Source of the DNA: a virus
DNA length: 5,686 bases
Virus record (IMG/VR): IMGVR_UViG_3300045988_001141
Location: 1-5,686 of that record
Reading direction: 5' to 3' (one strand)
Every line of letters begins with the position of its first letter. Position 1 is the stretch's first letter. Shown one piece after another: positions 45-5,686 of this stretch. The notes under the pieces were generated by a model. The model was not told where the DNA came from, did no database searches, and saw nothing but the letters and a program-made list of their open reading frames with translations. Both the position numbers and the translations under genes were made by a program.

Positions 45-89
45 ATGGTGTCAGTGGGCCTAATCCTATCAAGAAACGATTAGGCCCAC
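1..89. repeat. Terminal direct repeat, copy 1 (circular-genome assembly overlap)
   Basis: A base-by-base comparison shows 1-89 is identical to 5598-5686. The repeat runs to both window edges, as expected for a circle that has been linearised and over-read. Confidence 0.95.
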
Positions 90-100
90 TATTTATTTTC
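53..100 (+). terminator. Perfect 13-bp stem / 12-nt loop hairpin followed by a T-rich tract, a likely intrinsic terminator for the long operon
   Basis: AGTGGGCCTAATC (53-65) pairs perfectly with GATTAGGCCCACT (78-90) around the loop ctatcaagaaac, followed by atttattttc. It starts 9 nt after the VP4 stop codon. Confidence 0.6.
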
Positions 101-116
101 GCTTATTATATATAAC
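91..116. other. AT-rich tract (atttattttcgcttattatatataac)
   Basis: Direct reading shows almost only A and T. The tract lies directly upstream of the repeat and DnaA-box cluster, so a DNA-unwinding-element role is possible but unproven. Confidence 0.35.
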
Positions 117-121
117 TTGTT

Positions 122-137
122 GTAGTAGTAGTAGTAG
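122..137. repeat. Trinucleotide microsatellite (GTA)5 / (TAG)5
   Basis: gtagtagtagtagtag read directly from the sequence. Confidence 0.9.
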
Positions 138-210
138 GGAGTGTTGAAATGTTGAATACTATGAATTTTTATCCTTGGAACGATATTTTATGGATTATTT
201 TGATGTTGAT

Positions 211-234
211 ACTTTTGTGGATAACTTGTTGAAT
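211..234 (+). repeat. ~24-bp direct repeat, copy A (ACTTTTGTGGATAACTTGTTGAAT)
   Basis: It aligns with 274-298 (ACTTTTTGTGGAAAACCTGTTGAAA) with one 1-nt indel and three substitutions. Its 11-mer ATAACTTGTTG also occurs exactly at 112-122. Confidence 0.8.
216..224 (-). promoter_or_regulatory. Exact match to the consensus DnaA box (TTATCCACA on the minus strand)
   Basis: The + strand reads tgtggataa at 216-224, the exact reverse complement of TTATCCACA. Confidence 0.55.
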
Positions 235-253
235 TGTTGAAAGTGTAGCAATA

Positions 254-273
254 TGCACAAAACCATTTGTGCA
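254..273. repeat. Inverted repeat TGCACAAA-acca-TTTGTGCA (operator-like palindrome or hairpin)
   Basis: Two perfectly complementary 8-nt arms with a 4-nt spacer, located between the two DnaA-box repeats. Confidence 0.75.
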
Positions 274-298
274 ACTTTTTGTGGAAAACCTGTTGAAA
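274..298 (+). repeat. ~24-bp direct repeat, copy B
   Basis: See copy A. Confidence 0.8.
280..288 (-). promoter_or_regulatory. DnaA-box match (TTTTCCACA on the minus strand, fits TTWTNCACA)
   Basis: The + strand reads tgtggaaaa at 280-288. It occupies the same position within repeat copy B as the perfect box does in copy A. One-mismatch candidates lie at 251-259 (ATATGCACA, + strand) and 319-327 (TTAATCACA, - strand). Confidence 0.45.
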
Positions 299-333
299 GT
301 GTTGAAAGTGTTGAAAACTGTGATTAAAGACAG

Positions 334-352
334 TCCGGCGAGCGAAACCGGA
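334..352 (+). other. Small GC hairpin (TCCGG-9 nt-CCGGA)
   Basis: 334-338 is complementary to 348-352. It forms part of a GC-rich island inside an otherwise AT-rich spacer. Confidence 0.5.
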
Positions 353-359
353 AAGTCAC

Positions 360-404
360 GTCATGCTCTTCGAACGGCGCACCGCGCCTACCGCATGACC
401 TTTT
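360..404 (+). other. Compound GC-rich hairpin followed by CTTTT, a candidate ssDNA structural signal or terminator
   Basis: The outer stem pairs GTCATGC (360-366) with GCATGAC (393-399). The inner stem pairs GGCGC (376-380) with GCGCC (384-388) around the loop acc. The sequence cTTTT follows at 400-404. Confidence 0.55.
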
Positions 405-425: not shown

Positions 426-453
426 TTGACAAATCACAAAAGTGTGGTATAAT
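426..453 (+). promoter_or_regulatory. Promoter P1, a near-perfect sigma70-type promoter with extended -10
   Basis: TTGACA (426-431), a 16-nt spacer, then TGgTATAAT (445-453). An A/T-rich stretch lies upstream (ttttagattaaattgcaaaaaa). Confidence 0.75.
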
Positions 454-480
454 ATAATCAAAGAAAGGCAGGTAATAAAA

Positions 481-678
481 ATGAGGAAGCCTAGACTGAA
501 CGAAAACACCATGACAAAACTCGAAATTTACGGATGCGCAAAATGCGGTAAAAACTACTACGAACTGATAGACTACATCGACGCAGAAGGGAATTACAAC
601 ACAACACTTGAACGGACAGACTTAAGGACCGGAGACATGGATACGTTCGATTGGGAAAAATTCACAAAAGAGGAGTGA
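481..678 (+). CDS. Hypothetical small protein, 65 aa, mildly acidic, with one CxxC
   Basis: This is the 442-678 track ORF, but I place the start at ATG 481. The GTG at 442 sits inside the P1 spacer and -10, upstream of any likely transcription start. A weak RBS (aaggcaggt) precedes 481. I recognise no family. Confidence 0.55.
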   Translation: MRKPRLNENTMTKLEIYGCAKCGKNYYELIDYIDAEGNYNTTLERTDLRTGDMDTFDWEKFTKEE

Positions 679-683
679 AAATC

Positions 684-872
684 ATGAAACACAAATACGA
701 AATCCGAAAACTTGAAAGCGATGGGAAGGTAAACACCATCGAAGAATTTATAAAGGAACCGAAAGACGCAAGAAGAGAAGCAAGGGCATATGCAGAAAGA
801 CACCCGGGCTTATATACACTGTACAGAGTGGACACCATAGAAATCTACTTCACAGAAAAAAAGAGGGCTTGA
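684..872 (+). CDS. Hypothetical small protein, 62 aa (MKHKYEIRKLESDGKVNTIEEF...)
   Basis: This is the 651-872 track ORF. ATG 684 is preferred because AGGAG (671-675) lies 8 nt upstream, and the upstream gene stops at 676-678. The stop TGA 870-872 runs straight into a terminator. I recognise no family. Confidence 0.6.
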   Translation: MKHKYEIRKLESDGKVNTIEEFIKEPKDARREARAYAERHPGLYTLYRVDTIEIYFTEKKRA

Positions 873-887
873 CAGGCCCTTTTTTTT
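864..887 (+). terminator. Intrinsic terminator closing the two-gene cassette
   Basis: The stem pairs AGGGC (864-868) with GCCCT (876-880) around a 7-nt loop, followed by a run of 8 T (880-887). An upstream A-run (855-862) gives it a bidirectional appearance. Confidence 0.7.
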
Positions 888-897
888 ATGATATAAA
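869..897 (+). promoter_or_regulatory. Promoter P2, a sigma70-type promoter with extended -10, overlapping the terminator
   Basis: TTGACA (869-874, in the terminator loop), a 17-nt spacer, then TGaTATAAA (889-897). Confidence 0.65.
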
Positions 898-908
898 GAA
901 AATAGTTG

Positions 909-928
909 AACAGCGAAAGTGCTGTTTT
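909..928 (+). other. Stem-loop in the 5' leader of the predicted P2 transcript
   Basis: AACAGC (909-914) pairs with GCTGTT (921-926) around a 6-nt loop, followed by tt. It begins a few nt after the expected P2 start site and is preceded by an AGTTGAA iteron-like core at 904-910. Confidence 0.45.
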
Positions 929-976
929 ACAAATACCATTTATACAAAATAATCAAAAAGAAAGAGGTGAATTGCT

Positions 977-1099
977 TTGACCTTCAAGGAAATCAACGCG
1001 CTGTTCAGCAACATCCGCAAAATCTTGGCTAAACTGGACAAGATTTATCACATGTTGGAAGACAAGGACAACAGATTCCAGACCTTCAACGGAGACTGA
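977..1099 (+). CDS. Possible TTG-initiated 40-aa ORF (MTFKEINALFSNIRKILAKLDKIYHMLEDKDNRFQTFNGD)
   Basis: AAAGAGGTG (961-969) lies 7 nt upstream of TTG 977. The frame is open to TGA 1097-1099, and an in-frame stop at 968-970 bounds it upstream. The ORF fills an otherwise empty gap of more than 200 nt between P2 and the next gene, and the peptide looks amphipathic and helical. It is not in the supplied track. Confidence 0.3.
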   Translation: MTFKEINALFSNIRKILAKLDKIYHMLEDKDNRFQTFNGD

Positions 1100-1109
1100 G
1101 AGGCCGAAA

Positions 1110-1331
1110 ATGAAAGCGTGGAACGTAAGAGACCAGACCGACAAAACGCTGGCAGAAGTACTTACCAGAACCTACAAGGAAATCGAAACAACGTACAAAC
1201 ATGTATGCAAAGCCGCCACAATCGAAGACGCAAAGTTTTACATCGATATGGCATTCCGGAAAAAAGCTTTCGCAAATGACATAGAGATGGAACAAATCAG
1301 AAGGAGAGTCAACAATGGCGAAGAGGAGTAA
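1110..1331 (+). CDS. Hypothetical protein, 73 aa
   Basis: Track ORF with ATG 1110, preceded by GAGAGG (1098-1103) at 6-nt spacing. It overlaps the next ORF by 17 nt. I recognise no family. Confidence 0.6.
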   Translation: MKAWNVRDQTDKTLAEVLTRTYKEIETTYKHVCKAATIEDAKFYIDMAFRKKAFANDIEMEQIRRRVNNGEEE

Positions 1332-3775: not shown

Positions 3776-3795
3776 AGCCGGGTCAAAACCCGGCT
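3776..3795 (+). other. Hairpin between VP1 and VP2 (AGCCGGGT-caaa-ACCCGGCT)
   Basis: A perfect 8-bp stem starts 6 nt after the VP1 stop. It is followed by attctt rather than a strong U-run, so at most it is a leaky terminator or an mRNA-stabilising element. Confidence 0.5.
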
Positions 3796-3815: not shown

Positions 3816-4622
3816 ATGTCATTTTTAGCAGCACTAGCAACAGGCGCAAAATTACTAGGCGGCGTGAGCACGCTCGTAAACGCAGGCACAGGCATCTACA
3901 ACGCGCTTAAAGGCACATCGGGAAGCGGATCATCAGCAGCAGACAGCTACAACGAAATGCACAGTCAAGGCGGGTCAACCATGACCAGCGAAAGTGGCGT
4001 CAATATGGGACAGACGCAAGACCTTGCAAAATACTTCCTTGGGCAAAGCCAGCAAGCACAGGGAATGCAGAGCCTTCAAAACAACAAAAACTCGCTCATG
4101 GCTCTGGGCTTAAACACTCTGGGGGCAATTCAGCAGGGCGTTTATAACCGCATCCAGCAAGACGCGGCAATGTCCTTCAATTCGGCAGAGGCAGCAGCAA
4201 ACAGAGCATGGCAAGAAAGAATGAGCAACACAAGCTATCAGAGGGCTATGGCAGACATGAAAGCGGCGGGGCTTAATCCTATACTTGCCTACGCACAAGG
4301 CGGCGCAAGCACGCCCGCAGGCGCACATGCGTCGATTGGACAAAGCTCCATCAACGCACCGAGCGTGGGAACGCAAGCGTCAACCATGCCAACAATCTCT
4401 GGTTCGATAGCAAACTACAGCAAAACCAAGGCAGAGAGTTGGAACTGGACAGACTCGAAAGGCGAAATGCACAGCAGCGGCTATAACAGCTTTCAAACAG
4501 ATTTTCCGGACTTAACCGGATGGCTCAACCAAAACAACAACAGCGGCAAAAGCACAGCAGCTGGAGGCGGCAAAAAAGATAAACAGGGCTTCGGCGGCAG
4601 CAAGGGAGGCAGTTTTAAATGA
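3816..4622 (+). CDS. VP2: Minor capsid / DNA pilot protein VP2, 268 aa
   Basis: AAAGGAG is upstream of ATG 3816. The protein is Gly/Ser/Ala/Gln-rich and contains [29 protein letters not shown], the block I recognise as the conserved core of microvirus VP2/H-like proteins. Confidence 0.88.
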
Positions 4623-5641
4623 GCTGTGAAAGACCACTTATCAGAGTATACAACCCAAACGACCATAACATAACAGGGTCAATCATGACCCTAGAAAAAT
4701 ACAGAGAAAGAGCGCATAATCCAGCGGCAACATACGAAAGCCTAGCATATAGAAAAGACGTCATGCTACTACCATGCGGCAAGTGTCTGGGATGCAGACT
4801 CAGACAGCGACAAGACTGGGAAACCAGAATGTTGATGGAGTCAAAAACACTCACACCAGCATGGTTTTTCACTCTTACGTGGAATCAAGAATATGTGCCG
4901 GGAATGATAAGAGCAACAGGCGAACTTATACGTGGAGCAGTACACCAGTGGACAACGGGAGACGCGCCAGAAGTTGTGCAAATCCTATTGCAAGAGGACA
5001 TGGTACTTTTTAACAAGAGGCTTCGAAAAAAACAAGAAATGTCCGATAAATGGGGTACAGACCTCAGATATTTTTATTGCGGCGAATACGGCGAAACCAC
5101 AGGAAGACCGCATCACCACGCAATCTATTATGGGTTAGAAATACCAGACCTCAAGAAAAAAAGAGGCAATAATCCATACTTTGAAAGCGAAACAATAGAC
5201 AACATCTGGGGAATGGGCAATGTAATAATTGCAGAGGCGTCACCAGAAACAATGGCGTATGTAGCGGGATATGTGACAAAAAAAGCCTACGGCAACGACA
5301 CAAAACGATACAATGAGCTAGGGCTACCAGCGCCTTACTGCTGCATGTCGCGAAATCCGGGTCTAGGATACGACTACTACCAAGAGCACAAAGAGCAAAT
5401 GTACAAAGACGATGGGCTATATTTTAACGGCAAAAAAAGACCCATTCCAAGGTACTTTGACAAGATGCAAGAAGCTGAGAATCCCAAAAGGCTATGGGAA
5501 GTCAAAGAAAAGAGGCAGTCAAGCGCAATAAATGCACTTAAAGTAAAAATGTCAAACACAGACGTGACCATAGAACAGCAAGGCAAAATCAAAGAAAAGA
5601 ATCTCAGAGAACGCTTTAGTAAAGCAAGGGGAATTCTCTAA
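4619..5641 (+). CDS. VP4: Rolling-circle replication initiator VP4 (HUH endonuclease), 340 aa
   Basis: ATGA overlap with the VP2 stop. [15 protein letters not shown] is the Cys cluster typical of VP4. Motif 1 is FFTLTW (4865-4882), the HUH motif is PHHHAIYY (HHH at 5111-5119), and the catalytic Tyr motif is YVAGYVTKK (5258-5284). Confidence 0.92.
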
Positions 5642-5686
5642 ATGGTGTCAGTGGGCCTAATCCTATCAAGAAACGATTAGGCCCAC
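5598..5686. repeat. Terminal direct repeat, copy 2
   Basis: Identical to 1-89. Confidence 0.95.
5650..5686 (+). terminator. Second copy of the post-VP4 hairpin, cut off by the window end
   Basis: Same sequence as 53-89. The window ends one base before the last stem pair. Confidence 0.6.

Follow-up and report, generated by a model that had tools for sequence, protein, structure and literature searches.

The data support an oriC-like reading of the non-coding stretch that follows the replication gene of a small single-stranded DNA gut phage: it is built like the core of a bacterial chromosome origin and is shared almost unchanged among more than 100 otherwise divergent phages, suggesting that these phages recruit the host initiator DnaA, which has not been reported for this virus family. 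We analyzed a window of 5,686 nt (the whole stretch of DNA from IMG/VR record IMGVR_UViG_3300045988_001141), which is a complete circular gokushovirus genome of 5,597 nt with an 89-nt terminal redundancy. All of its genes are on the + strand: VP4/Rep at 4619-5641 (ending at window position 45), four ORFans, a J-like basic peptide, and VP5, VP3, VP1 and VP2. The only long non-coding stretch is 46-480, which ends in a perfect promoter, TTGACA-16-TGnTATAAT, at 426-453, and it contains the conserved element at 104-318 (+). DnaA dependence itself is plausible but unproven, being inferred from sequence alone.

An earlier note had described DnaA boxes within a duplicated ~24-bp module beside an AT-rich tract, and we confirmed that these features are present where it placed them. 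TGTGGATAA at 216-224 is the exact reverse complement of TTATCCACA, and TGTGGAAAA at 280-288 fits TTWTNCACA. Both sit in a 21-nt direct repeat (213-233 and 277-297) that is 90% identical. The sites at 251-259 (ATATGCACA, opposite orientation) and 319-327 (TGTGATTAA) are one mismatch from the relaxed consensus TTWTNCACA but two from TTATCCACA, and 91-116 is 22/26 A/T.

We next compared these boxes against dinucleotide-preserving shuffles and against relatives, as the note had proposed. The canonical boxes alone are not significant. In the whole window, we found 3 matches to TTATCCACA at <=1 mismatch against 1.06 expected (18 of 200 shuffles reach that) and 2 matches to TTWTNCACA against 0.49 expected (20 of 200), while within 138-325, 167 of 2000 shuffles reach the observed count. 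What is far beyond chance is the underlying repeat, TGTKGA(A/T)(A/T)N. Its hexamer TGT[G/T]GA occurs 10 times forward and 0 times reverse in these 188 nt, with all copies in 142-314, whereas the shuffle mean is 1.1 and the maximum is 6 in 2000; the other 5.4 kb hold 2 forward and 4 reverse copies. The two canonical boxes are the G-variants of this repeat, and the 24-bp module is a strong box followed 11 nt later by a T-variant. In relatives, the sites are kept at fixed positions while G and T swap at a given site, so that in many of them 216-224 reads TGTTGAAAA. The site at 319-327 lies outside the conserved block and is not conserved.

The key part of the architecture, missed by the earlier note, lies upstream of these boxes. 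On the + strand, read 5'->3', there is the least stable duplex of the genome (89-128), five perfect TAG DnaA-trios (123-137), a 4-nt G-rich gap (138-141) and a pair of boxes (142-158), which is the order, strand and orientation of the basal unwinding system (BUS) of bacterial oriC. By nearest-neighbour energy, 89-128 holds the least stable 30-nt and 40-nt duplex windows of the whole genome. The AT-rich tract at 89-122, a candidate DNA-unwinding element, contains TTATT (103-107) and TTGTTGT (117-123), with ATATAACTTGTTG being invariant in the VP4-selected relatives listed; the block conserved among relatives starts at about 104. The (TAG)5 tract at 123-137 (+), that is 3'-GAT-5' x5, was detected as a tandem repeat with period 3, 5.3 copies and a 100% match, and the three trios nearest the boxes are the same in nearly all of the 77 unique relatives. 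The gap at 138-141 (+) is GGAG in the window and GGGC, GCAC or GGGG in relatives, equivalent to the GC cluster of the BUS; it is 4 nt in every element matched and also in three non-matching sequences that we read. It is followed by the trio-proximal pair TGTTGAAAT (142-150, +) and TGTTGAATA (150-158, +), each with 3 mismatches to TGTGGATAA.

Two box clusters follow on the + strand. The first (204-243) comprises TGTTGATAC (204), the perfect DnaA box TGTGGATAA (216-224), TGTTGAATT (227) and TGTTGAAAG (235), at offsets of 66, 78, 89 and 97 nt from the end of the trios. The second (280-317) comprises TGTGGAAAA (280-288), TGTTGAAAG (291), TGTTGAAAG (300) and TGTTGAAAA (309), at offsets of about 142, 153, 162 and 171 nt. 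Between them, at 251-273, is the only reverse-oriented box-like site, ATATGCACA (251-259), inside the inverted repeat TGCACAAA / TTTGTGCA (254-261 / 266-273; 8/8 complementary), which is the only pairing in the centroid fold and whose stem is invariant and loop variable in relatives of the window type (type I).

The 104-318 block is 75-99% identical in about 100 of the microvirus contigs fetched from IMG/VR, and its core is present in 48 GenBank records. Almost all come from human, pig, monkey, dog, mink or raccoon gut, and the block is annotated in none of them apart from a few 'hypothetical protein' calls. It is always on the coding strand, about 70-700 nt downstream of VP4 (90/90). Its divergence is uncoupled from that of the genes: genomes with VP4 42-45% and VP1 about 50% identical to the window carry the element at 92-97% nucleotide identity, while several genomes with VP4 98-99% identical carry a second version (type II) that is only about 75% identical. 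In GenBank, several divergent gokushoviruses match the window by megablast only in this block. Consequently, the element tracks a host factor rather than Rep, and a host factor is the most economical binder.

Relatives chosen by VP4 alone, and so unbiased with respect to the boxes, all read ATATA-ACTTGTTG-TAG-NNN-TAG-TAG-TAG, then a 4-nt G-rich gap, then a 9-mer, then a second 9-mer 8 nt further on. The first 9-mer is TGTGGAAAA in most of them, including type II relatives (1 mismatch), and TGTTGAAAT in the window type. Of the 40 unique elements from these relatives, 25 have a canonical trio-proximal box (TGTGGAAAA in most) and 39 keep at least one canonical forward box; one relative has no canonical box at all. 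Over 90 unique elements, there are 8.8 forward and 0.14 reverse sites per element, spaced by 8, 9, 11 or 12 bp. The variable base is T in 627 sites (79%), G in 162 (21%), A in 3 and C in 0.

We then compared the element to chromosome origins. The closest known system is the BUS, with its DnaA-box pair, GC gap, DnaA-trios and AT-rich region (B. subtilis incC; Richardson 2016 and 2019; Pelliciari 2021; PMC8287927, PMC6669920). The published BUS definition consists of a DnaA box, a spacer and at least three consecutive trios (NAN; consensus 3'-GAT-5') (PMC8287927). Table S1 of PMC8287927 writes the trio strand 3'->5', a reading that we checked against E. coli oriC. Read 5'->3' on the trio strand, BUS elements of Firmicutes match the phage layout: B. 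subtilis is TAGTAGAAGTAATAGTAG-GGCC-TGTGGATT-TGTGGATAA and S. aureus is TAGTAGTAG-GTGC-TGTGGATT-GGTGGATAA, while the phage is TAGTAGTAG-GGGC-TGTGGAAAA-GTTGAAAAC in type II and TAGTAGTAG-GGAG-TGTTGAAAT-GTTGAATAC in the window; the C. difficile trio tract is the complement of TAGTAGTAATAGTAGTAG-GTG (PMC7561715), and E. coli R1 has the same orientation. Parts, order, strand, gap length and box orientation are therefore the same. The phage element differs in lying within a 5.6-kb single-stranded DNA rolling-circle phage next to an HUH rep gene, rather than next to dnaA/dnaN, and in that most boxes of its array are T-variants.

A 30-nt pattern taken from the phage core, TTGTAGNNGTAGTAGTAGGNNNTGTKGAAA, was scanned against one genome for each of 185,579 bacterial species (596 Gb). 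It hit only two places, where from the base counts we estimate about 0.01 hits by chance. Both hits lie in the dnaA-dnaN intergenic region, one in a Clostridia MAG and one in a Saccharibacteria MAG, with the flanking DnaA and DnaN confirmed by Pfam; the scan found origins, not prophages, and gives no host. A type II core aligns with the Clostridia origin over 57 columns, beyond the scanned pattern.

The match to the BUS is not complete. When we applied our version of the published rule, which requires a box with <=2 mismatches to TTATCCACA within 0-16 bp of the trios, nothing was returned for the window, whose perfect box lies 78 nt from the trios, while the one type II relative tested passed (TGTGGAAAA, 1 mismatch, gap 4). 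The window would also pass if its host's standard motif were T-type, as the table sets for some species. The T found in 79% of sites replaces a G of the DnaA consensus (C6 of TTATCCACA), a position reported to be important for E. coli DnaA (Schaper and Messer 1995). T-type boxes do occur in predicted bacterial BUS elements (Sebaldella TGTTGAAAT and P. gingivalis TGTTGAAAA), and the table uses T-type standard motifs for C. pneumoniae AR39 (TGTTGAAAA) and Borrelia (TGTTGATAA), although these are predictions rather than binding data. In addition, microviruses replicate by rolling circle with their own Rep, phiX174 does not need DnaA, and the classical gokushoviruses Chp2, phiMH2K and SpV4 have no comparable element.

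Our preferred explanation, to which we assign a probability of about 0.5, is that 89-318 is an oriC-type module for assembling DnaA and opening DNA that acts on the double-stranded replicative form. In this mechanism, host DnaA-ATP would bind the canonical G-type boxes, cooperatively fill the closely spaced T-type sites (8-12 bp apart, all in one orientation), continue across the G-rich gap onto the five TAG trios of the + strand and open the adjoining AT tract. The bubble could then admit the host helicase and primase, giving theta-type copying or maintenance of the replicative form. Alternatively, it could expose a neighbouring stem-loop at 53-90 (+), directly after the VP4/Rep stop codon and abutting the AT tract, to the HUH nuclease VP4. 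This stem-loop, a candidate Rep origin or terminator, has a stem that differs completely between phage clades but is maintained: among the relatives aligned, 4 of 9 predicted pairs show compensatory double changes and none is broken, while its loop (CTATCAAG, with CTTGATAG on the other strand) and 5' flank GTGTCA are invariant. Our measurements establish the architecture with its order, strand and orientation, the fixed site positions, the conservation, the horizontal spread independent of Rep and the sequence similarity to real dnaA-dnaN origins; that DnaA is the binder, made without knowledge of the host's own box preference, that it oligomerises on the trios and separates the strands, and which downstream step this serves, are inferences.

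The earlier note's interpretation, an oriC- or iteron-plasmid-like origin, was partly supported. Its chromosomal (oriC) half holds on stronger evidence than the note had. The iteron-plasmid half is not supported: theta plasmid origins (pSC101, R6K, RK2, P1, F) share direct repeats, DnaA boxes and an AT-rich tract, but no plasmid-type initiator (RepA, pi or TrfA type) is encoded here. The only Rep is an HUH nuclease (PF23343, phrog_942) with which the element does not co-vary, and the repeats are 9-mers that are themselves box variants, not 17-22-bp iterons; the boxes are therefore not fused to an iteron core, as the note had proposed. A further parallel is offered by arrays of low-affinity DnaA sites nucleated by strong boxes, such as the E. 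coli oriC DnaA-oligomerisation regions and the weak sites of the Caulobacter origin (Taylor 2011, cited in PMC10797057). The phage element likewise has one or two strong boxes, each followed by two or three weaker same-orientation sites, though its spacing is 8, 9, 11 or 12 bp rather than a uniform 11, and there is no evidence that its weak sites discriminate DnaA-ATP.

Among alternative explanations, the best surviving, though unlikely, is that the TGTKGAAA array is bound by another protein, either a phage core protein such as VP4 or VP5 or another host DNA-binding protein, and that the resemblance to oriC is partial mimicry or coincidence. The TGTTGAAA array would then be a Rep-loading or regulatory iteron array. 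The prevalence of T-type sites, the relative without a canonical box and the failure of the window's proximal boxes under the BUS rule are consistent with this view, as are the array's location between rep and the main promoter and the assignment of VP5 to a PHROG annotated as a DNA-binding protein. However, genomes with 99% identical VP4 carry either element type, genomes with 43% identical VP4 carry a 95% identical element, and the phage core pattern retrieved only true origins. Core proteins are 35-64% identical. Accessory phage proteins are also disfavoured, as the ORFans at 481, 684, 977 and 1110 are present in only 13, 10, 61 and 60 of 88 carriers and have no family match. The absence of C at the variable position excludes the Spo0A box, TGNCGAA.

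A second, somewhat less likely alternative, compatible with our preferred explanation, is DnaA-dependent priming of the complementary strand on the incoming single strand, as the earlier note had suggested. In this ABC-primosome-like route (R6K A site, pBR322; reportedly Masai and Arai 1990), a hairpin would present a double-stranded DnaA box, the trios would bind the DnaA filament, and DnaA would load helicase and primase. The trio strand is the coding strand in 90/90 occurrences, and is the packaged strand if other Microviridae are a guide, although shared synteny alone can explain the constant orientation. Each element type keeps one reverse-oriented box that forms an inverted repeat with a forward site (254-261/266-273 in the window and TGTTGAAAA-N7-TTTTCCACA in type II), and in type II the reverse box is also complementary to the trio-proximal box. 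However, the window's short 8-bp hairpin (254-273), the only robust one, covers only 6 of the 9 bases of a one-mismatch box and lies 117 nt from the trios. The perfect box can pair with 252-262 (213-223/252-262; 11 bp, 1 mismatch, 28-nt loop), but this pairing is absent from the centroid fold and is lost in relatives that carry a T-type site there. The trios and the ordered array are not part of the ABC system.

As single-stranded DNA, 91-330 folds no better than 200 shuffles (z = -0.02), which fits a double-strand site array rather than a folded priming signal, and 320-425 is also not significant (z = -1.27). The phiX174 PriA (n') site, G4 oric and the ssoA/ssoU origins of rolling-circle plasmids are strongly folded single-strand signals, a property not found here, though sso cassettes are likewise non-coding modules exchanged independently of Rep. 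A phiX174-like nick motif, AACTTG, at 114 and 223 is not shared in any consistent place by Chp2, phiMH2K or SpV4 and is uninformative, and by eye a short palindrome in the AT tract has its half-sites in the opposite order to a XerCD/dif site.

It is improbable that the element is merely a DnaA sink or regulatory site, with the multicopy replicative form titrating DnaA as datA does to delay host initiation, or with DnaA controlling the phage promoter. There are about 10 sites per genome copy and a perfect promoter about 110 nt downstream of the array, but titration does not need perfect trios, a fixed 4-nt gap, a single orientation or adjacency to the least stable duplex. A small protein or structured RNA with the repeats as a by-product is very unlikely, because the hydrophobic 27-aa ORF at 149-232 (GGAG 7 nt upstream), though intact in most window-type elements, is cut short by stop codons or has lost its start codon in at least a dozen relatives, carries non-conservative changes and is absent from type II elements, ORF 253-327 would be put out of frame by a 1-nt gap seen in distant relatives, and Rfam gives no match in 46-480.

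A broader reading, which we hold more tentatively, is that a large group of gut gokushoviruses carries a portable mimic of the bacterial chromosome origin core and uses host DnaA-ATP to open the replicative form, coupling phage DNA replication, or plasmid-like persistence, to the host's initiation state. This would be the first oriC-type origin in a single-stranded DNA rolling-circle virus, and its exchange between phages with very different Rep and capsid genes would make it a host-range or host-physiology module. In the literature searched, no paper links Microviridae or gokushoviruses with DnaA or DnaA boxes. How gokushoviruses start DNA synthesis is essentially unknown, and the field expects folded hairpins recognised by a primosome (PMC9865509). 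An oriC-type module would instead give a concrete, testable mechanism, would tie replication of very abundant gut phages to the host initiator and cell cycle, offering a route to carrier-state persistence, and would provide a sequence handle for host prediction by matching the phage trio/box core to host origins. It would also extend the basal unwinding system beyond chromosomes, and look-alikes in large viral contigs hint that the module is used more widely by mobile elements.

We found that a stem-loop lies directly after the VP4 stop codon (window 53-90, repeated in the terminal redundancy at about 5650-5686). Its stem differs completely between three phage clades, but it is kept by compensatory changes, as 4 of 9 pairs change on both sides and none is broken, while the loop CTATCAAG and the 5′ flank GTGTCA are invariant in the sequences aligned. 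The reverse complement of the loop, CTTGATAG, contains CTTGATA, the nick-site consensus of phiX174 and pC194-type Reps, although it lies on the non-coding strand. The hairpin could be the Rep origin, a terminator, or both. A GC-rich hairpin (AGCCGGGT-CAAA-ACCCGGCT) is located between VP1 and VP2 (window 3776-3795) and was called terminator-like on both strands.

In some relatives, an optional insert separates the post-VP4 hairpin from the AT tract (for example, in the related contigs L122, L134, L147, L056, L061, L076 and L075), whereas it is absent from this window. The insert is about 160-190 nt long in the window's own VP4 clade and shorter in others. In the window's clade, it holds a G6...C6 or GGGGTCTCC...GGAGACCCC hairpin, and all versions hold a 35-45-nt alternating CG/CA tract (CACGCGCACGCGCGAAACGCGCACGCACGC) that abuts the AT-rich tract. 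The longer version also holds a reverse-facing box-like CTATCCACG or TTATCCATG. Tandem duplications were found inside the element itself: the relatives L126 and L057 carry two copies of the AT/trio/box core, while L136 and L088 carry a duplicated box module. The region is prone to duplication, and the duplicates are tolerated.

Within the element, a 27-aa hydrophobic ORF (window 149-232; MLNTMNFYPWNDILWIILMLILLWITC) is preceded by GGAG 7 nt upstream. It is intact in most window-type elements but broken in at least a dozen, and it is probably a by-product of the conserved DNA sequence.

Between the box array and the promoter, there is a GC-rich pair of hairpins (window 329-400) that is conserved in many relatives of both element types. 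In other relatives, it is replaced by unrelated GC-rich hairpin-prone modules, for example in L135/L141 and in L129/L139/L030. The pair may be a single-strand priming signal, though in this window its fold is not significant on its own (z = -1.27). Farther downstream, a perfect extended -10 promoter (12/12) drives a cassette of ORFans (window 426-1331). The ORFans at 481 and 684 occur in only 13 and 10 of 88 related genomes, respectively, those at 977 and 1110 occur in about 60, and none matches any Pfam or PHROG family. This is a variable accessory-gene region next to the conserved element.

Finally, textbook BUS-like cores were found in six viral contigs of about 9-160 kb (L158, L160, L161, L166, L169 and L173), for example (TAG)3-GGGC-TGTGGATAA-TGTGGATAA preceded by an AT-rich stretch, and no dnaA or dnaN was found in the stretches of these contigs that were retrieved. 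Two GenBank 'Bacteriophage sp.' contigs (MT836079 and MT836067) also match the trio/box core. Origin look-alikes may be used by other phages or phage-plasmids.
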